Source of the DNA: Deltaproteobacteria bacterium
GTDB taxonomy: Bacteria > Myxococcota_A > Polyangia > JAAYKL01
Direction of reading: 5' to 3'
Assembly: GCA_016937015.1 (NCBI GenBank)
Contig: JAFGWT010000543.1
Span: 30,440 to 94,439, forward strand
DNA: 64,000 nt
The notes under the pieces are model-generated. The model had not been told where the DNA came from and ran no database searches. It saw nothing but the letters and a program-made list of their open reading frames with translations. A program made the position numbers and the translations under genes. Every line of letters starts with the position of its first letter. Positions within the stretch are counted from its first letter, which is position 1. Of this stretch, positions 1 through 64,000 are shown one piece after another.

Positions 1-87
1 GTAAATGGTTATTTCAAAAAAAGTCAAACGTGAACCACGTCTTCGTTTATTGTGTTCAGCGGAGCGCTGTACTAAAATGAGAATGAA

Positions 88-552
88 ATGATTCTTCAAA
101 CAACAATTATTGACATTCTTGAACGACTGGCCGATGTGGAGCAGCTTGCCGCCGAATTATACGGACATTACGCACGCCTTTTTTCCACGCATCCAGTTGC
201 TTCCAAGGTATTTGCTCAAATGCAGCGCGAAGAGGAGTCTCATCGGAATCAGGTGATGCGGCAAAAGCAAGTGGTCGCACGTTTTTTGTCCGCAAACGAT
301 TTTATTGATGTCGATATGGCTGGGGTTGACATTGTGGCCAACGCCATACTGAGAAAGATATCGGAAAGTCGTTTGTCTCTAAAGGATGCCGTCGATTTCG
401 CCATCTGGATGGAGAGTGCCGGAATGGAATCCGCTTATCGAACGGCAGCGTCCAGATACAGCACGCATCTTGAAAAGCTGGCGCATGCACTGTCAATTGA
501 GGATTCGGCCCATATTGAACAACTTAAAAAGCTGCGGGCAAGCAGTGGATGA
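88..552 (+). CDS. ferritin-like four-helix-bundle protein (two E-x-x-H motifs: EESHRNQV and EDSAHIEQL)
   Basis: 154-aa ORF; paired ExxH motifs typical of di-iron ferritin-like/rubrerythrin-like folds; no upstream in-frame start. Confidence 0.45.
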   Translation: MILQTTIIDILERLADVEQLAAELYGHYARLFSTHPVASKVFAQMQREEESHRNQVMRQKQVVARFLSANDFIDVDMAGVDIVANAILRKISESRLSLKDAVDFAIWMESAGMESAYRTAASRYSTHLEKLAHALSIEDSAHIEQLKKLRASSG

Positions 553-610
553 AGTTTTTATAGACTTCCCGCGGGGACAACCGGACGTTCGCAGCCCCAA
601 AAGGTTTTTC

Positions 611-1612
611 TCAATCCCTGCCAAACAGTGCCAGCATGGCTTTTAGTATCCCAATGTGTTCACCTTTGTGCTTGGTTGCAAGAACTGGCACCGAGCATTG
701 TTTGATGAGCTGTTCGGTGACGCTCCCCAGCAAAACGCCGGCGGCACCGCTGCGGCCCCGGGCGCCAATGACAACCAGATCGCAATGGCGTGCTTCAATT
801 TCACGTTCGAACACATTTGCGGGATGGAACGTTTCGTCCACTCGACAGTCAAAGGTGATTTTGGCATTTGCCGTATGAATTTTGCGCTTTAGAGCATCAC
901 ATTCCCTTTTGGCAAAAAAAGTCGCTGTTTCAATTTTCTTTTCACGGGGCTCAACCGGATCCGGCGCACCGCCGGGGTAATGAATATCATTGTATACCTG
1001 AAACAGATTCAGGGCATGTATTTCGGCGTTGAATGCGATGCCAAGGTCAATGGCCGTTTGCAATGCAAGTGTTGAGCACCTGGAATCGCGTATCGGACAG
1101 AAGATTTTCGTGAGCCGCGGTACGAACTCTTCTGGCACCACCAATACAGAGCATGTTGATTTTCTGGTCACTCGCCTCGGAAGAATGGCCACGTCACCCA
1201 TTTCAAGACGTGCACCCAGATGTCTCCCCATTACAATAAGGTCAATGTCTTCGTCATGAGCGACCATCAGCGTATCTTTCAGCTGATTTCCCACGAAAAC
1301 CTTGACCTCCTGATGGATGCCGTCGATGTCTCCAAAGTGTCTCACCGCAGCTCCAGTCATTGCGTCTGTATAGCCGGTTGTCAGGCGCACAATTTCGTCG
1401 TGGTACTGACGGTCCAAATCCAATTTGCTCGTTCCTTCGACTTCTGATGCGATAGCCAATCGCGATTCCAGTGGGGTGTCGTGGATAACATGGAGAAGAT
1501 AGACCGTTTTCAAACCAACCGTTTTGGCTATCATATGCGTGTATTCGATAACATGCGCATCCAGGTTGACATCTTCCACACACACCAGAACCTTTTCAAG
1601 TTTGTTTTCCAT
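611..1612 (-). CDS. tandem universal stress protein (two UspA domains)
   Basis: 333 aa; two Usp-like halves each ending in the G-x-x-G-(9)-G-S ATP-binding motif (GRHLGARLEMGDV..; GARGRSGAAGVLLGSVT). Confidence 0.8.
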   Translation of the reverse strand: MENKLEKVLVCVEDVNLDAHVIEYTHMIAKTVGLKTVYLLHVIHDTPLESRLAIASEVEGTSKLDLDRQYHDEIVRLTTGYTDAMTGAAVRHFGDIDGIHQEVKVFVGNQLKDTLMVAHDEDIDLIVMGRHLGARLEMGDVAILPRRVTRKSTCSVLVVPEEFVPRLTKIFCPIRDSRCSTLALQTAIDLGIAFNAEIHALNLFQVYNDIHYPGGAPDPVEPREKKIETATFFAKRECDALKRKIHTANAKITFDCRVDETFHPANVFEREIEARHCDLVVIGARGRSGAAGVLLGSVTEQLIKQCSVPVLATKHKGEHIGILKAMLALFGRD

Positions 1613-7625: not shown

Positions 7626-8489
7626 ATGCTGAACAGAACGATACTTTTTGTAATAATACTGGTGATTTGCGGCTGTGTGAGTACTACCTATGCGCCGCCT
7701 GAGGACGATGTGAAGGATTCGGGGTCTCCCAATGATTCAGATTCGGGGCCAACCGGCGACAGCGACACCGATACCGACACGGACGCTGATACGGACACCG
7801 ATACGGATACTGATACAGACACCGATACCGATACAGACACCGATACCGATACAGACACCGATACCGATACAGACACCGATACGGACACCGATACGGATAC
7901 TGATACAGACACCGATACAGATACAGACACAGATACAGATACAGACACAGATACAGACACAGATACAGACACCGATACGGATACTGACACAGATACCGAC
8001 ACAGACACAGATACTGACATTGATACCACCACTGATTCTGAATCAGGTAGCGACACGATGGATACCGCAGATTCCGAAACGACAGATTCTGGATTGAACT
8101 GCACCGGCGGCACAACGGAATGCAACGGCGACTGCGTTGACTTGACATCAGATCCCAATAACTGCGTGACCTGTGGGAATGTCTGTTCAGACCCCACGCC
8201 ATACTGTGGTGCAACCGGGTGTGAGGCCGGGATTTTGCTGGCATACGGTGTCGGGGTTGAATTAGAGCCTGGCACTTATGCGATAACCACCGGAGCGACA
8301 GATAATCCATCCGGAACTGGTACCCTTGCGTTGCAGTCTGCAGGGGGCACAACCATTGATGCCAGCGTCACCTTTGACGGTACAACCGCCGAGGGCAATG
8401 ATTACTATGTCTCCTTTCCGAATATACCGGAGGAAACGACCGGTTCGCTAACCATCTCTGCATCGGTAACTATTACTTTTGAGTGGTAG
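7626..8489 (+). CDS. secreted lipoprotein: ~90-residue (Asp-Thr)n linker + Cys-rich module + beta-rich C-terminal domain
   Basis: lipoprotein signal (VICGC); DTDTDT... run encoded by GATACNGACACN repeats (7755-8030); C-x-G-x-C-V-D-L-x-S-D-P-N-N-C-x-x-C-G-x-x-C module. Confidence 0.6.
   Translation: MLNRTILFVIILVICGCVSTTYAPPEDDVKDSGSPNDSDSGPTGDSDTDTDTDADTDTDTDTDTDTDTDTDTDTDTDTDTDTDTDTDTDTDTDTDTDTDTDTDTDTDTDTDTDTDTDTDTDTDTDTDTDTDIDTTTDSESGSDTMDTADSETTDSGLNCTGGTTECNGDCVDLTSDPNNCVTCGNVCSDPTPYCGATGCEAGILLAYGVGVELEPGTYAITTGATDNPSGTGTLALQSAGGTTIDASVTFDGTTAEGNDYYVSFPNIPEETTGSLTISASVTITFEW
7755..8030 (+). repeat. GATACN/GACACN hexanucleotide-type coding repeat ((Asp-Thr)n linker)
   Basis: directly visible ~45 dipeptide-coding repeats inside CDS 7626..8489. 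Confidence 0.9.
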
Positions 8490-31272: not shown

Positions 31273-31985
31273 ACTGCACTCCATATGTTTTCACATGGAT
31301 TAAATCGCACCATGTGAACAGGCTGTTGTCGTTATGCTATTTTTTTTCAGAACTAATATGCCTTCAGCTGGTTACATCCTGCTTAGGCTATGCATGTGAC
31401 AGTTGAGGCGGTCGTTCGGGGAGAAACCGGTAATCGCCACCTGCGCGCGACATGGGGAGGCATGGGGGGATGACCACAAAAAAAATACCATATGCAAACT
31501 GAATATTAATTGGGATTTCTGCAGAAAACGATTCTTCTTCCAGCAGATGTGACGTGTCTGCCGGCACATGAAAGGGTAAGTCCGCCGCATTTGGCATGTG
31601 CAAAACAGAGCGCTTAACCGTAAAATCCGTCGGTTCTTCAATTGACTGCATCATCAGCCACATGGAGGCACAAACAGCTGATATTATTAAAAATGCAATA
31701 TATTTTAAAGAGTTACGGAACACGATACCTGCCTTTTATTGAACGGCGAATCATCCTTGCAAATCGTTGATTTGAACCGACCGCCTTATTAATTATATAA
31801 GCAGTGCTGCACTGAACGCAACCCGGAGACACATTTTGGCGGTAACGTGCGGGCAACAATACATACTCACCGGCCCCCAAAAAAAATATCCGGTTTCCCA
31901 TTTTTGTTTCTCCAGGTGTTCATATCGCAAAAGCAATTACATGCAGCAGGCAACCGTCAGCTGCGTGGGAGGGGAGACGACGTTT

Positions 31986-34145
31986 ATGAAACAGAAAAGA
32001 ATATTTAGACACATCGGGTGGCTTGCGGTGCGGGCTGTTTTACTGTCAGTGACACTGCTTGGGACAGGATGCGGCGACGATGCCGGCGAATGGCAGAGCA
32101 TGAAGGTCCGGATGGTGCGCCACAACCTTATTTCTTTCAACAATGCACAGTCGTTTGTGGCGTATGCACAGGACGCAGCCAGCCAACGCATGCGGGCAGA
32201 GGTTGAACTTCAACGTGCTCAGGACATTGCGTGGCTGACCACCGAGCCGGCATTGCGTGATATGCCAACCGCCAACGCTGATGTTGATTACGCCGAAGAT
32301 ATGGATTCGAGTTCTTCAGATGCCAAAGGCGATGACGCCGGCGGCACGGCAGGGCATTCAACGACGAACACCCAGGAGGCTGGTGTGGATGAGGCGGACA
32401 TAGTTAAAACCGATGGGCAGTATATCTATGCTTTGAGTGGCGGAAAGCTGGTTATCGTAAAAACGCAGGAAGGCGTTTTAACAAAATCCGGCAGCATTGA
32501 CGTGGGTGGGTTCGCAAGGGAGATGTTCATTAACGGTAACGTGGTCGCTGTGTTTTCGAATCGTGCAGAAGCGGATGTGCCAGAAGAAATGCGCTATCCA
32601 ATGAACGATAATGCAAATCTGTACAACATCAAATATGACGACATGTCCGTAGATGATGTGGCGATGCCCGATTCGGATCCAGGAACGGGAAAAGCCTATT
32701 GCGACGAGTATGGTTGTGCAGGCAACACATATCTGCAACTGGCGCTCGTGGATGTGAGCAATCCATCGGCGCCGTCGCTTATCCGCACGATGATTTACGG
32801 CGGACAGTATGTGACGTCTCGCATGGTTAATGGCGTTGCGCGTCTCGTGCTGGACACACCTCTGTATAATCTCTCCATGACCTGGGACTATGGCGACAAT
32901 CCGGACTGGTCAACAGAGCAGGGGCTCAATACGGCCTATGCGAACGTGATTCGCGAAAATGAAACCGCATTCAGCGCATTGACGATGAAAGACATTGTTC
33001 CCGGAAAATGGGATTCCAAAACAAACGCAGTCACACTTCTGGTGAATCCTGAAAATATTACTGCGCCGCAAACACCCAATGGGGTTGGATTACAAACAAT
33101 TGTGTCTATTGATTTAAATAGCCCTATGGCCGATTCCACGCAGGAAGGTGTTTTTTCACAGCGTGGCATTGTCTATGCCAGCACAGAATCCCTTTATCTC
33201 ACAAGTGCCAGAGACTGGGTATCCCTTGCAATGGAATCGGGCCTTTGGTCAGGTTATGAAAACCAGACAACCGGTATTCATAAATTTGACATCAGCGGCA
33301 ACACATTGGATGTTCCCTGGTTGGCCACCGGCACTGTGGACGGACGGCTGCTGAATCAGTTCAGCATGGGCGAGAAGGATGGATACCTGCGGGTTGCGTC
33401 CACTACAGGTGATTTCTGGTGGGGCGATGCTGGAAACACGCTGGACAACCACGTGTTTGTCTTGGGGCAGGCGGGAACGATGCTTAAACAGATCGGCCAT
33501 ATAAGTGGACTCGGTGCGGGAGAGGAAATCTACGCCGTGCGTTTCATGGGCGACAAAGCATTTATTGTCACATTTTTCCAGAGCGATCCCCTGTTCACCA
33601 TTGACCTTAGCGACCCCGCGAACCCAACAAAACTGGGCGAATGGGTTGGTCCGGGATATTCAACGTATCTGCATCCGTACGGCGACAATCTGTTGATTGC
33701 ACTTGGGGAGGAAGACTGGCAACCGACGATCTCCCTATACAATATTGCAGATTTCTTCAATCCGGTTCTGGTTCAGCGCATTCCGCTTGGCACTGACGCA
33801 TGGAGTGCTGCGCTCTACGATCACAAGGCATTCACCTTTAATCCCGAAACAGGCTTTTTGGCTCTTCCCTTCAGTGGCTGGACAGACGGTTTTCAGACGG
33901 GAATTTTGACTTACAAAATCAGTGAGGGCGGTATCGAACCCCGCGGAACCCTTAACATGGCCACTGAGGATGACTCATATTACTCTGAAGCGTTGCGTTC
34001 GATGTACATTGATGAGTTTCTCTATGGAATGTCCAGATGCAGCATCGGTTCGGCGCCAATCGATTCTCCGGAAAGCATCACTTCAAGCGTGGCATTGTTT
34101 GACGGAGAAAACTGCGCCGGCGATTTGTATCCGTACTGGTACTGA
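31986..34145 (+). CDS. secreted beta-propeller-domain protein (COG4880/Beta_propel-like)
   Basis: start at MKQKRIF with signal/lipobox (LLGTGCG); early EAGVDEADIVKTDGQYIYALSGGKLVIV motif that I recall as characteristic of this family; ~700-aa beta-rich remainder. Confidence 0.5.
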   Translation: MKQKRIFRHIGWLAVRAVLLSVTLLGTGCGDDAGEWQSMKVRMVRHNLISFNNAQSFVAYAQDAASQRMRAEVELQRAQDIAWLTTEPALRDMPTANADVDYAEDMDSSSSDAKGDDAGGTAGHSTTNTQEAGVDEADIVKTDGQYIYALSGGKLVIVKTQEGVLTKSGSIDVGGFAREMFINGNVVAVFSNRAEADVPEEMRYPMNDNANLYNIKYDDMSVDDVAMPDSDPGTGKAYCDEYGCAGNTYLQLALVDVSNPSAPSLIRTMIYGGQYVTSRMVNGVARLVLDTPLYNLSMTWDYGDNPDWSTEQGLNTAYANVIRENETAFSALTMKDIVPGKWDSKTNAVTLLVNPENITAPQTPNGVGLQTIVSIDLNSPMADSTQEGVFSQRGIVYASTESLYLTSARDWVSLAMESGLWSGYENQTTGIHKFDISGNTLDVPWLATGTVDGRLLNQFSMGEKDGYLRVASTTGDFWWGDAGNTLDNHVFVLGQAGTMLKQIGHISGLGAGEEIYAVRFMGDKAFIVTFFQSDPLFTIDLSDPANPTKLGEWVGPGYSTYLHPYGDNLLIALGEEDWQPTISLYNIADFFNPVLVQRIPLGTDAWSAALYDHKAFTFNPETGFLALPFSGWTDGFQTGILTYKISEGGIEPRGTLNMATEDDSYYSEALRSMYIDEFLYGMSRCSIGSAPIDSPESITSSVALFDGENCAGDLYPYWY

Positions 34146-58243: not shown

Positions 58244-59593
<1,350 letters not shown>

Positions 59594-59812
59594 AATTACT
59601 CCTCGTTTTTTTGAGTTCAAACACCTTGTCAATTATCGGTATAGTTTAGTCATAATCCAGCTTGTGCAAAGTGAATAATCGGTTTTTAAAAATATACATT
59701 TTAAAAATACTGAAATTGCAATTTTAATATAATTTTTTGCTTGCGGTCATGATTCCAGAAGTGAGCGGAAAATTCGGAGGTACCCATTAAATGGACCACG
59801 TATCGGCCGTTT

Positions 59813-62197
59813 ATGACAAGGACGCTTAAAAATAACAAATGCATAGAAACAGTCAATAAAATGCGCGACCACAGAGACCCACAGTATATTATTTTACTGG
59901 CATCCGCTGGCCAGCTAACAGTTGACCAACACGGAAATGTGCAGCGTTTCGATGAACGATTCAGGCTTCGTTATGTAGAACTGACCGCTTTTGGTGATGA
60001 CACATCCAGACATGCGCTTTTTCTGTTGTGTCCGCGCAATCAGTTACATTGTCAGGCCGTTTCAGAATGTCTGCGGATGGGCAGTGCAAAACGTCGCATG
60101 ATTTTCCAGATTAGCGAAGCTGAACATAACGCTGTTGAAGTGGAGCTGATATATACCCCATCCGGCGCTGGTGAGCTCCTGGCAGATATTACCGTTTTCG
60201 AAAAGGGCATCGTCCCAGGCTCCGAGCAGAACGAACAACGACAGGCCTGCGAAGCCGAATCCTGTGGTAAATATATCAAAAAGGTGAGCAGCGAATTCAG
60301 AACGCCCATGAACGGGATTATCGGCATGGCAGGATTGCTGCTGGATACACCACTGACGTCAGAACAGCAGGAATACGCAAAGACCATGCGGCACAGCGCG
60401 GAATCCCTGATGCGAACGGTCAATGATCTGATGGATTTGTCACGAATACAGTTGGGCGAACTGGCACTTGATGAAGCACCTTTTGACTTTCGGTTAATCA
60501 TTCGCAACATAGATGTTGCAATGATTGAACTGTCAGAAAGCAAGGGGCTCAGCTACCACTGTGTTGTTGATGACAATCTCACCAGTAATCTGGTTGGCGA
60601 TGCTGGCAGGTTGCGTCAGGCCATCAGTACAATCATTCTCAATTCCATCGAATCGACCACGCGGGGAAATATTCTAATTCGCTACGAAGAGGCAGCGCGT
60701 TTGAAGGATAAAGTTGTCGTTGAAATTTCCATCTCGGATACTGGGATTTCTCTCGACGAGAATCAACGCGCGACCCTTTTTGATGCCTTTTTTGACACAG
60801 CGCAGCCATCTGCACGGAAGTTTGGCGGATCAGGACTCGGCCTTTATGTGGCCAGGAAGCTGATTGAAACAATGGATGGGCGTATTGAAATTATTCCAAT
60901 ACATGATGGCGGAATTACATTTCGAATTAGATTATCCCTTTTGGTGCCTGAAGAAAAAATTTCATATTCGGCCCCGTCAATGTGGACGGAAGAAACTAAA
61001 ATAATTGTTTTTGATGAGATTGGGTCGGCAGAGCGAATATCGATTCAACTGGTGGAACAATACAACTGTGAGTGCGAGTATCAGGACAATGCCGAGGAAG
61101 TGTTTCTGGCTATGCGCAATGCCCAACAGGCAGGAAAACCATTTGTAGTGGCAATTCTTGATATGGATCATATCTCGGATTACTCCGGATATCCAATTAC
61201 GGGTAAAGAGCTCGGAATGAAAATCAAACAGCACGAGCAGTTGCAGGACACTATTATAATTATGCTTACGGCACGCGGAATGATTGGCGATGTACGTGAA
61301 CTGCGGCAAATGGGTTTTGAGGTATATCTGCCGAAGCCTGTTAATGTCGATCAGCTTGGACAAAGCATTCTTCTGGCCAAAAGCAATCGACACATGTTTG
61401 AACAGCATTTACCCAGTGTGATTACGCGTCATACGCTGGAGGAAGAGTTGAAGCGCGGCGCGCACATTCTGCTTGTGGAAGATAATGTTGTGAATCAAAA
61501 AGTTGCACAAAAGCTGCTGGAGAAGCTGGGGTACCAGGTGACTATCTGCAAGGATGGTGAGGAATGTATCCGTGCGCTGTCATTGGACAATTACGACCTG
61601 GTCTTCATGGATATACAGATGCCCAATATGAATGGCTTTGAAGCCACTCGTATTGTACGTGACACTTCCTCGAAAGTCCTTGACCACACCGTTCCCATCG
61701 TTGCGATGACAGCGTACACCTCTGACGAGGATAAACATCAGTACCTCAGCGCAGGCATGAATGACTATATGTTCAAGCCAGTCAGTATGTCTGGCTTCGA
61801 TCAGATGGTCACCAAATGGGTTTCGAATGTTCATCACAGAGATGCGCTGTGTGCGAAGCTTCCACGAGAGGAGGTGCTGTTCGAGCCGGATAGATTGCGG
61901 GAACAGCTTGTGGGAGATGAAGATTTGTACAATCGGATAATAGAATCGTATCTTCATGAAACTGTGCAGCAGATTGGAAAATTGAAAGATGCGGTCGCGC
62001 ATGATGAACTCAAGCGCACTCGTGATATTGCCCGGATGCTCATCAACGCATCAGATGATGTTACCGCAAGGAGCATGAAAAGTATTGCCCGCCAGATTGA
62101 ACAGGCAGCCATATCTGCCAACCGAATGCGGCTTACCGGTCTCATTGAAAAGCTCGACGGACAGTTTGAGAAAACCCGACAGTTTATTGGAAACTGA
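59813..62197 (+). CDS. hybrid sensor histidine kinase (cytoplasmic N-domain, HisKA, HATPase_c, receiver, C-terminal HPt)
   Basis: H-box FRTPMNGIIGMAGLL; G2 box GSGLGLYVARKL; receiver ILLVEDNVVNQ...DLVFMDIQMP...; HPt-like helix with Hxx(K/R) near C-terminus (AHDELKRTRDIARML). Confidence 0.9.
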   Translation: MTRTLKNNKCIETVNKMRDHRDPQYIILLASAGQLTVDQHGNVQRFDERFRLRYVELTAFGDDTSRHALFLLCPRNQLHCQAVSECLRMGSAKRRMIFQISEAEHNAVEVELIYTPSGAGELLADITVFEKGIVPGSEQNEQRQACEAESCGKYIKKVSSEFRTPMNGIIGMAGLLLDTPLTSEQQEYAKTMRHSAESLMRTVNDLMDLSRIQLGELALDEAPFDFRLIIRNIDVAMIELSESKGLSYHCVVDDNLTSNLVGDAGRLRQAISTIILNSIESTTRGNILIRYEEAARLKDKVVVEISISDTGISLDENQRATLFDAFFDTAQPSARKFGGSGLGLYVARKLIETMDGRIEIIPIHDGGITFRIRLSLLVPEEKISYSAPSMWTEETKIIVFDEIGSAERISIQLVEQYNCECEYQDNAEEVFLAMRNAQQAGKPFVVAILDMDHISDYSGYPITGKELGMKIKQHEQLQDTIIIMLTARGMIGDVRELRQMGFEVYLPKPVNVDQLGQSILLAKSNRHMFEQHLPSVITRHTLEEELKRGAHILLVEDNVVNQKVAQKLLEKLGYQVTICKDGEECIRALSLDNYDLVFMDIQMPNMNGFEATRIVRDTSSKVLDHTVPIVAMTAYTSDEDKHQYLSAGMNDYMFKPVSMSGFDQMVTKWVSNVHHRDALCAKLPREEVLFEPDRLREQLVGDEDLYNRIIESYLHETVQQIGKLKDAVAHDELKRTRDIARMLINASDDVTARSMKSIARQIEQAAISANRMRLTGLIEKLDGQFEKTRQFIGN

Positions 62198-62232: not shown

Positions 62233-64000
62233 TTATTCGAAGATTTCGCGAACGCAACGTCCACCAATGGCTGAAGAGGTCGTGGCAGGGGCTTCCTTAT
62301 CCCGCGCGGCGTTTCTGAATGCGGATGCATACATGCTGTTGTAGCTGCCGCCGCGAACAACAAATTCGTCACCAACCGGGGGGCCTTGTGGGTTGATGCA
62401 GCTTTCTCCTGCACATCCTCCCAGAACCTCACCATATAAATCCTGTGTCCATTCAGAAACGTTGCCCATCATATCGTATAGTCCAAATGCGTTGGGTTGA
62501 AGACTTCGCACTTCGAAAACACGCGATGTGCCACAGCCAGGATTGTCCTCGTTCATGATGACACGGGAGCAGTCAGGTGCAGGCGTGTTTCCCCAGGGAT
62601 ACGCATAATATGTGTCCGCAACTCCATCGTGACCACACCTGGCCGCGTTTTCCCACTGGGCCTCGGTCGGAAGATCCCCCTCCAGATAGCTGCAGAATTC
62701 CAGGAGGCCTTCGTGGGTGATGCAGTTTATTGGCGCTGTGTTGTTTTCCTTGCCGTTGAATGTGCAACCGGTGGTGGTTGCCACATTGGCTGCATTGCAT
62801 CCGCCGTTCCGGACGCATACCGCATACATGCCCGCCGTCACTTCGCTGTCCATAATGTAATAATCAGAAAGTGTGACCGGAACACGCTGCTCATCATTAT
62901 CGCAATTTGTATCGAGGGACCAGTCACATCCCAGCGTGATCTCGCCGCCGCTGATTCGAACCCACGCCATACCATCCATCCCCGCTGGCACACACTTGTT
63001 ATCGACACTGCATGTCTCACCCGAGCCACATTCACCGCAGTCGACGTCGCCAACGGAACCGCACTCGATGTTATTGCATACATCCACACATACGCCGGCG
63101 TTATTACAGCCGAACATGTTGCCGAGGGAGGAACAGTCTCCACAGCTCACGCCCTCTACTGTACCGCATTGACGATCGCCGCATGCGTCCACACATGCCC
63201 CATTGCTGTCACATCCGAAAGTTGCGCCGTATTCGCTGCAATCGCCGCAGCTGATGCCATCGACAATGCCACACTCGCGATTTGAGCATACGTCAAAACA
63301 GGTGTGTGTTTCTGAACAGGCATAGGTAGCGCCATAGTCCGAACAATCACCGCAATTTACTCCGAGCAGCAAACCGCATTGGGCATTGGCACAGGCATCG
63401 ACACATTTGTAGTCGCTGCAGGTGTAGGTGAGACCTTGAGCGCAAGTGCCGCAATTGACGCCATTGGCAATACCGCATTCATAGGATGAATCGCAGGCAT
63501 CCAGACATTGGCCTGTCTCATTGCAGAATTCTCCATCACTGCACGTGCCGCAAATAAATCCGTCAACAGTTCCGCAAACCTGATTTAAACATGGAAACGC
63601 CACCTCGGCAGGTGTGCACCCAACAATATCAAAATCTGTTGCATCGTACCTGGTCTCAAGAATTCCGGTTTTACCGTCCTTGCTGATTTCTATCTCAAGT
63701 GTGCGAACGCCACCCACCCGTGGACTGCAGATACCCATTAGATAATATGATTTGGAGATGTCATGAATCAGAGCGGTGATTTTGGCAAAAGATGTTTTCA
63801 GCGCATCTGTGTTGGCGGCCCATTCAAATCCGTTTTTGCCAAACTGTTCCAATTCCTCCTGGTTGACATCGGTTCCAAGACCGACGGTGTACACGTAAAC
63901 TTCTGAAGATTGAATCAAATGATCCGCGGTTGTCTTTGACGCTGCCATTGCTTCATCAGTTCCATCGGTAAACAGAACCATGGATTCTGCTGATAAAATA
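62233..64000 (-). CDS. partial (N-terminus beyond window) multidomain protein: vWA-like + six ~35-aa Cys-rich repeats + C-terminal FGE/SUMF1-like domain lacking catalytic Cys pair
   Basis: LFTDGTD vWA motif; repeats of C-V-D-(A/V)-C-x-x-x-x-C-G-x-x-x-G-(V/I)-x-C-G-x-C; C-terminal FGE-like motifs (YAYPWGN, GLYDMMGNVSEWTQD, RGGSYNS) with SUMF1 GGSYMCHRSYC replaced by GGSYNSMYASAF. Confidence 0.7.
   Translation of the reverse strand, partial: ILSAESMVLFTDGTDEAMAASKTTADHLIQSSEVYVYTVGLGTDVNQEELEQFGKNGFEWAANTDALKTSFAKITALIHDISKSYYLMGICSPRVGGVRTLEIEISKDGKTGILETRYDATDFDIVGCTPAEVAFPCLNQVCGTVDGFICGTCSDGEFCNETGQCLDACDSSYECGIANGVNCGTCAQGLTYTCSDYKCVDACANAQCGLLLGVNCGDCSDYGATYACSETHTCFDVCSNRECGIVDGISCGDCSEYGATFGCDSNGACVDACGDRQCGTVEGVSCGDCSSLGNMFGCNNAGVCVDVCNNIECGSVGDVDCGECGSGETCSVDNKCVPAGMDGMAWVRISGGEITLGCDWSLDTNCDNDEQRVPVTLSDYYIMDSEVTAGMYAVCVRNGGCNAANVATTTGCTFNGKENNTAPINCITHEGLLEFCSYLEGDLPTEAQWENAARCGHDGVADTYYAYPWGNTPAPDCSRVIMNEDNPGCGTSRVFEVRSLQPNAFGLYDMMGNVSEWTQDLYGEVLGGCAGESCINPQGPPVGDEFVVRGGSYNSMYASAFRNAARDKEAPATTSSAIGGRCVREIFE

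Follow-up and report, generated by a model that had tools for sequence, protein, structure and literature searches.

In Myxococcus xanthus, the gliding focal adhesion comprises CglB (MXAN_3060), an outer-membrane lipoprotein adhesin with a von Willebrand factor A (vWA) domain (PMC9946355), and CglD (MXAN_0962), a surface lipoprotein described as beta-integrin-like, with a vWA domain and a Cys-rich stalk containing epidermal growth factor (EGF)-like repeats (bioRxiv 10.1101/2023.10.19.562135). The Cys-rich repeats of TraA, a kin-recognition receptor of M. xanthus that is encoded beside traB, were proposed to form a rigid stalk with a lectin-like head (PMC3325183). In Bacteroidota, the lipoprotein PorK exhibits the fold of the formylglycine-generating enzyme (FGE) without the catalytic cysteines, and this fold acts as a docking hub in which the former substrate-groove regions dock PorN (PMC12421860). 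Here, we analyse a gene located at the end of a 64,000-nucleotide stretch (the window) of contig JAFGWT010000543.1 (positions 30,440 to 94,439), from a Deltaproteobacteria bacterium of the class Polyangia. Its product associates a vWA domain apparently within a beta-sandwich, an unclassified rod of six-Cys units and a Cys-less FGE head, and the gene has an obligatory vWA lipoprotein neighbour. Each of these elements, and the overall logic, has precedents, but the combination appears to be undescribed so far, and nothing relevant was found in the literature on the vWA and FGE-sulfatase architecture.

We infer from the sequence, with moderate confidence, that this Polyangia cell-envelope lipoprotein is an adhesin or a surface scaffold and not a sulfatase maturase. 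Its most likely role is in binding and not in catalysis; by analogy, its way of working would be closest to that of the Cys-stalked vWA lipoproteins of myxobacteria and of PorK's docking FGE fold.

A gene for a probable vWA lipoprotein at the window end

The gene is present on the minus strand as a frame of 588 open codons (62236..63999) with a TAA stop (62233-62235), the 5' side being beyond the window end. The list of open reading frames (ORFs) gives 62233..63981, since the start was placed at an internal ATG. In a protein search, a protein of 769 aa (P0001) was found to be 100% identical to the window fragment over its length. P0001 is encoded on contig L001, which matches the window without a difference (100% identity) across 4568 nt (L001 1491-6058 corresponding to window 64000-59433), and thus belongs to the same genome and reaches 1490 nt past the window end. 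As the original prediction had supposed, the N-terminus lies beyond the window, and the missing residues could be recovered from L001. The part outside the window amounts to 543 nt, or 181 residues, of the called gene; counted from an upstream ATG, it amounts to 594 nt and 17 more residues, for a full protein of 786 aa instead of 769 aa.

The called start, which reads MAFFLWGC..., is probably too short. The in-frame ATG located 51 nt upstream of it in L001 is preceded by GGAAGGAAA and encodes MTMNHLIYFKYISCIALMAFFLWGCGPKK. By inspection, the N-terminus obtained from this ATG, MTMNHLIYFKYISCIALMAFFLWGC, is a signal peptide with a lipobox-like Cys at its end, both features of bacterial lipoproteins being present (MTMNHLIYFKYISCIALMAFFLWG directly followed by C). 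Most of the homologues with a complete N-terminus start with a hydrophobic segment terminating in x-G-C. We consider that the gene is real and that its product, as predicted from these features, is probably a membrane-anchored lipoprotein. The order of the modules is signal peptide and lipobox, beta-strands, vWA domain, beta-strands, six Cys-rich units and a C-terminal FGE-sulfatase domain, with 54 Cys in the protein (7%). This whole architecture is shared by 23 further full-length or near-full-length proteins (45-62% identity), and the domain anatomy proposed originally, namely vWA, Cys repeats and FGE-like domain, was therefore correct. Regarding the secreted adhesion or scaffold protein that had been suggested from it, an extracytoplasmic binding or scaffold role agrees with the many Cys (54) and with the presence of a signal peptide, but the lipobox Cys suggests a lipid-anchored protein and not a freely secreted one.

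The vWA-like domain that had been read from the window fragment, where the Pfam VWA match is marginal (E 0.002), is clearly recognised in the full protein (residues 86-238, E 4.9e-11). Its MIDAS (metal ion-dependent adhesion site) is complete, and the residues D89-x-S91-x-S93, T160/T161 and D193 are invariant in the 23 homologues. Of these residues, D193 alone is inside the window; F191, T192 and G194 are likewise invariant in the family alignment. A model of the full protein was built with AlphaFold2 (AF2) from the 23-sequence alignment. Its predicted local distance difference test score (pLDDT) has a mean of 75, with values mostly around 80 up to residue 530 and of 30-60 across much of 640-760. 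In the model, a Rossmann-type vWA domain (residues 81-263) is preceded by beta-strands at 18-75 and followed by three further strands at 266-300. Together, the strands on the two sides probably build a sandwich that carries the vWA domain as an insertion, as in the integrin hybrid domain. The best Foldseek matches in the PDB, over 330-560 columns, are proteins with a vWA domain and a flanking beta-sandwich or hybrid domain (4fx5, ArnAB, ITIH1 and integrin beta3), followed by the classical adhesive I-domains of integrin alpha-I, the anthrax-toxin receptor and TRAP; the first FGE structures come at rank 31.

The FGE-like domain and the Cys-rich units

The assignment of the C-terminal domain to the FGE family is supported by a match to PF03781 that is essentially end to end (profile positions 4-255 of 255, E 3.3e-36, 125.7 bits for a cutoff of 23.3) and by human FGE structures being the best match in a phmmer search of the PDB (E 1e-17). 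The fold is homologous to that of the catalytic FGEs of human (SUMF1), Streptomyces coelicolor and Thermomonospora curvata, and the landmarks LPTEAEWE, GN-x-EW, RGG, the C-terminal G-x-RC and the residue R349 of human FGE (R747, invariant) are kept. In contrast with these enzymes, the domain forms one module, the C-terminal one, of a lipoprotein of 769 aa, and the copper-binding C336 and C341, as well as the disulfide partner C346, are absent. In the phmmer alignment, C341 is equivalent to Ala739 and C346 to Asn744, while C336 falls in a 2-residue gap, or corresponds to Ser736 under an alternative gap placement. This alignment to human FGE structures confirms the loss of the catalytic cysteines and the SUMF1 motif given in the original prediction. 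The catalytic pair is missing in all 23 homologues, in which the loop reads RGGxWNDFYxSAFRTAxR. As far as can be judged from these residues, the protein cannot perform FGE chemistry.

The loss of the pair, to which the original prediction had drawn attention, is not a distinguishing oddity of this protein. Of the 120 best FGE-domain matches, the 108 with a recognisable RGGxW motif could be checked, and none exhibits a CxxxxC pair; the next 12 residues contain no Cys in 69 of them and one Cys in 39. These best matches are multi-domain proteins, including kinase, dockerin and Laminin_G fusions. Loss of the cysteines is thus normal for this branch of PF03781.

The family proteins are named 'SUMF1/EgtB/PvdO family nonheme iron enzyme' in the source annotations, and the FGE fold may still catalyse a Cys-independent reaction on an envelope substrate, as proposed for PvdO or the sulfoxide synthases EgtB and OvoA. 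The NCBIfam models for EgtB, SenA and PvdO do show weak similarity (E 1e-10 to 1e-11), an His-Asp pair (H638, D639) is invariant, and the former active-site loop is well conserved: its 15-residue window has a conservation of 0.80, compared to a domain mean of 0.70, and ranks twelfth of 226, which indicates that the loop is constrained and not decaying. In one of 14 loci, a sulfatase gene (PF00884) is even immediately upstream (L007 5835-7781). Nevertheless, the scores are 8- to 13-fold short of the model cutoffs (43.8 bits for EgtB against 360, 38.7 for SenA against 420, and 38.3 for PvdO, NF051459, against 500), and the DinB-like iron-binding domain that EgtB needs was detected neither by Pfam nor by NCBIfam, the N-terminal half consisting of beta-strands and the vWA domain. 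Moreover, both copper ligands of FGE are gone, and a sulfatase gene is adjacent in this single locus, L007, where the homologue also lacks the catalytic cysteines. An enzymatic function is thus quite improbable, and the name given to the family is probably misleading.

The variable proteins of diversity-generating retroelements (DGRs), such as TvpA of Treponema denticola, use the same fold subclass as a pure ligand-binding scaffold. As TvpA (2y3c) is among the PDB sequence matches (E 1.4e-7) and the domain has the C-terminal position that is found in DGR targets, the protein could be a DGR variable protein on an FGE-type C-type-lectin fold, with its variable region at the extreme C-terminus. 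We rejected this explanation, which is effectively refuted: a blastn search with the last 368 nt of the gene against the window and L001 gave no template repeat, the best chance match being of 28-30 nt (E 0.8), and the family members have a conserved, not a hypervariable, C-terminal segment.

The six repeats of approximately 35 aa that had been noted between the two domains were searched with a profile built from 133 family units (consensus CVDACADAECGTVLGVDCGDCSDLGETFACDDDNT). Exactly six units were found in the window ORF, with per-unit E-values of 7e-8 to 3e-15, and the profile matches nothing else in the six-frame translation of the window. The re-phased unit, C-x4/5-C-G-x6-C-G-x-C-x5/8-C-x5-C, comprises 35 aa and six Cys (36 in total), with linkers of 3 residues. 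Neither Pfam nor NCBIfam models nor any solved structure match the repeat region. In particular, no sequence profile or disulfide-knotted fold of the EGF-like, laminin-EGF or integrin I-EGF type was recognised, so the repeats could not be attributed to a known EGF-like or laminin family, which would have spoken against the original prediction. The NCBIfam scan of the window fragment, with all six repeats, returned no repeat model at E <= 1, the inclusion of TIGR04201 (TraA-type) and TIGR02232, the models of myxobacterial Cys-rich repeats, in the release being unconfirmed. This rare 35-aa six-Cys repeat, unmatched by Pfam models, could become a profile.

Tandem Repeats Finder detected no 105-nt period in the DNA of the gene, which indicates that the units of the window gene are old and diverged. 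Across the family, the number of units ranges from 5 to 8 and changes by insertion or deletion of whole units. A recent intragenic duplication is indicated by P0011 (L004 8001-10430), where three units of 35 aa in a row hardly differ, CVDACADAQCGTILGV[N/D]CGDCSAFGETFGCDENN. Both observations fit a spacer whose length varies by whole units. When the 200-aa repeat region was compared with 1.84 billion cluster representatives, 61 matches were obtained. The domains that co-occur with it in the 59 matches scanned are FGE-sulfatase (18), VWA (11), Lcl_C (4), Laminin_G_3 (3), FG-GAP (2) and Recep_L_domain (2). Given the few matches and the binding domains that accompany it, the unit appears to be a rare, mobile, extracytoplasmic spacer.

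Alternatively, the units could bind metal through CGxC pairs resembling zinc knuckles, and be metal-dependent or redox-sensing instead of disulfide-bonded. The C-G-x-C spacing is of this kind, and an artificial triple consensus repeat weakly matches the zinc-binding pocket family PF07754 (E 1.5e-4, 22 bits for a cutoff of 33.2), but the native repeat region has no Pfam match at all. In addition, six Cys per unit allow three intra-unit disulfides, an export signal is present and exported Cys-rich repeats are normally oxidised, and CglD, a related case, shows dithiothreitol-dependent mobility shifts (bioRxiv 10.1101/2023.10.19.562135). Metal binding by the units is therefore very improbable.

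A relationship had also been proposed between these units and the Cys module of a lipoprotein at 7626. This could not be upheld, as the repeat profile is silent on that ORF even at E <= 10. The ORF (7626-8489, plus strand) encodes a lipoprotein-like protein of 287 aa in which a run of about 50 Asp-Thr dipeptides precedes a Cys motif, CTGGTTECNGDCVDLTSDPNNCVTCGNVCSDPTPYCGATGC. This motif gives a sub-threshold match to Stig1 (E 7e-4). Shadow ORFs are present opposite the Cys-repeat region, at 62497-63285 (plus strand) in the window with equivalents in L001-L014; they are by-products of the codon pattern and not genes.

Family, partner gene and proposed function

The family is confined to metagenome-assembled genomes (MAGs) of Polyangia (Myxococcota). 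A scan of one genome per species gave seven loci, all in MAGs labelled Polyangia, Myxococcota, Myxococcales or Deltaproteobacteria, and the window contains no paralogues of the gene. The cassette of N-terminal beta-strands and vWA domain has stand-alone homologues of about 360 aa in marine Flavobacteriaceae (31-34% identity, 93-100% coverage). In both genomes examined (L015 7001-8089 and L016 7001-8098), the homologue divergently adjoins an operon for a [2Fe-2S]/molybdopterin oxidoreductase. These homologues were considered as a functional clue, but as single genes next to a molybdoenzyme operon they are uninformative.

The strongest functional clue was missing from the original prediction, as it lies beyond the window: a gene for a YfbK-like vWA lipoprotein adjoins the family gene in all 14 loci, in two gene orders. 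It is directly upstream in L001, which is from the window genome and where it sits just outside the window, and in L002, L005, L008, L009, L011, L012 and L013, and directly downstream in L003, L004, L006, L007, L010 and L014. In L005, it is cut by the contig edge, which leaves its last 44 codons. The gaps between the two genes are of 3-75 nt where both ends are readable. The partner comprises 545-590 aa, with a lipobox, a long acidic tether rich in D/S/T, a vWA domain with a complete MIDAS (DTSGS ... GGSTNLYG ... ISDG) and a C-terminal part of about 180 aa for which no matches were found. As regards its likeness to YfbK, the partner itself has a faint match to PF12450 (E 0.057). The partner family has at least 1491 matches, some with PF12450, named either VWA domain-containing or 'Ca-activated chloride channel family'. 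The latter is the COG2304/YfbK-type label. In L011, a second, inverted copy of the partner (2-823, minus strand, about 49% identity) is found roughly 4 kb from the first.

The gene and its partner are not recent paralogues, a possibility that we rejected after BLASTP gave no significant similarity beyond the MIDAS motifs. A wider conserved operon was also ruled out. When the ORFs of the 14 loci and of the last 14 kb of the window were clustered, the gene, its partner and the shadow ORFs were the only ones recovered, with no other neighbour in at least 3 loci. The consistent association with sulfatase genes (CxPxR motif) expected for a catalytic FGE is likewise not observed (1 of 14 loci, among those with gene calls).

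In the mechanism that we propose, the lipid anchor would hold the vWA end at the membrane, probably the outer membrane, since no family member has a Lys at position +2. The six Cys of each unit could form three disulfides, which would give a stiff rod of a length varying by whole units; this rod would keep a distance between the FGE-fold head and the anchored vWA end. An acidic side chain of the ligand may be captured by the MIDAS metal ion, and the former substrate groove of FGE may have been turned into a second site of docking, for a protein or a glycan. Together with the adjacent YfbK-like vWA lipoprotein, the protein would form a two-protein adhesin or scaffold comparable to CglB and CglD. 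The non-catalytic binding module that had been predicted is in line with the loss of the Cys pair, with the precedent of PorK, and with the VWA, Lcl_C, Laminin_G_3 and FG-GAP domains that the repeat accompanies elsewhere.

With regard to the myxobacterial systems, CglB and CglD belong to the same phylum and are outer-membrane lipoproteins with a MIDAS-bearing vWA domain. In CglD, as described, this domain is in a beta-sandwich, and CglD works with a second vWA lipoprotein, CglB. In contrast to the window protein, with which it was compared by description only, CglD has repeats that are COMP-like and Ca-binding, and an FGE-fold domain has not been reported in it. Neither the source names nor the NCBIfam matches point to the Cgl proteins, and no glt or agl genes are found among the called neighbours of the gene pair. 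TraA likewise has a lectin-type head on a tandem Cys-rich region and a partner gene. However, its head is PA14-like, its repeats are of the TIGR04201 type and its anchor is a C-terminal MYXO-CTERM, whereas the window protein would be anchored by an N-terminal lipid.

The Cys-less FGE fold could also serve on the inner leaflet of the outer membrane, in a periplasmic scaffold where it docks partners of an envelope-spanning machine, as in PorK, GldK and GldJ, the lipoproteins of the Bacteroidota type IX secretion system (T9SS) and gliding machinery in which this fold docks protein. Among the NCBIfam models, the one for PorK/GldK matches the C-terminal domain best (E 1.3e-22), PorK structures are among the PDB matches (E 5e-13), and the FGE fold of the lipoprotein PorK docks PorN (PMC12421860). 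Nevertheless, the match to PorK/GldK (TIGR03525) reaches 80.7 bits for a cutoff of 350 and is limited to the generic C-terminal part of the model (positions 257-407 of 408). The window protein is from Myxococcota, without T9SS context, has no detected InsH-type insertion domain and has the vWA domain and Cys-repeat rod in addition. No genes for a T9SS or another machine are conserved nearby, the vWA partner being alone in this respect, and the repeat elsewhere accompanies domains of lectin and adhesion type. A rod of 5-8 modules with two globular domains would probably also be long for the periplasm. We consider a periplasmic location unlikely, though deserving attention, and retain the adhesin or surface scaffold as the preferred reading.

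A more specific form of the adhesin can be imagined by analogy with the integrin beta ectodomain, which has the same order of modules: a MIDAS vWA domain, apparently within a beta-sandwich, precedes tandem modules rich in Cys. The Foldseek match to beta3 integrin (E 6e-12 over 560 columns) has a very high root-mean-square deviation of about 29 A. In contrast to integrin beta, the units have six Cys and not the eight of I-EGF, they match no structure, the protein would be anchored to the membrane by its other end, and the beta-tail and transmembrane segment are replaced by an FGE-fold head. A Polyangia subclade may possess an integrin-like adhesin of two lipoproteins for the recognition of prey, kin or matrix at the cell surface, made of a beta-integrin-like subunit with a six-Cys stalk and an FGE/C-type-lectin head, and of a vWA partner. 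This remains speculative and is rather doubtful as a whole.

Several points weigh against the adhesin or surface scaffold. Every family member is from uncultured MAGs. The lipobox of the window gene, L-W-G-C, is atypical, and the placement in the outer membrane uses a rule of M. xanthus, in which Lys at +2 is the inner-membrane retention signal. The FGE-like C-terminal half is poorly modelled (pLDDT 30-60), and the geometry of its groove is not readable from the model. Finally, the two distant partner homologues examined (45-50% identity) stand alone, which indicates that the partner has no general need of the FGE-fusion protein. As the partner family is widespread and has solitary members, the FGE-fusion gene looks like an accessory that was joined to it in one Polyangia subclade.

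If the proposed function is correct, this would be the third independent case of an FGE fold recycled for binding, after PorK/GldK and the DGR variable proteins. The small set of proteins with which myxobacteria contact surfaces, prey and kin (CglB, CglD and TraA) would also be joined by one more Cys-stalked vWA lipoprotein. The analysis flags an automatic enzyme name that is probably misleading, and overturns nothing established.

Features and neighbouring genes

Coordinates of the gene and of the elements of its product in the window
Feature	Window position	Strand	Basis
Family gene, 3' 1768 nt (residues 182-769 and stop)	62233..64000	minus	open frame; identity to P0001/L001
vWA domain, C-terminal part (residues 182-262), with MIDAS Asp193 at 63964-63966 in LFTDGTDEA	63757..63999	minus	Pfam VWA; conservation
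Three beta-strands after the vWA domain (residues 263-308)	63619..63756	minus	AF2 secondary structure, pLDDT in the 80s; Foldseek
Six tandem Cys-rich units (residues 318-517)	62992..63591	minus	repeat profile
Individual units	63505-63591, 63403-63495, 63298-63393, 63193-63288, 63088-63183, 62992-63078	minus	
FGE-sulfatase-fold (C-type-lectin-like) domain (residues 526-765), 12 family-conserved Cys, no catalytic pair	62248..62967	minus	PF03781; PDB phmmer; conservation
Former active-site loop RGGSYNSMYASAFRNAAR (residues 730-747)	62302..62355	minus	alignment to human FGE structures

Downstream of the gene in the window, a convergent gene (59813-62197, plus strand) encodes a hybrid histidine kinase/response regulator (HisKA, HATPase_c and Response_reg). 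The gap between the two genes is of 35 nt and contains no terminator-like hairpin. This neighbour is not conserved in the other loci.

The product of a gene located directly downstream of the family gene in L005 (2413-4620) is 38.6% identical to a Beta_propel (PF09826)-type protein of the window (31836-34145, plus strand), the gene of which is 28 kb away from the family gene. C2 is a Ca/lipid-binding domain typical of eukaryotes and unusual in bacteria. An ORF of 462 aa at 58244-59632 (minus strand) clearly contains such a domain (PF00168, with E 1e-13, in two stretches).

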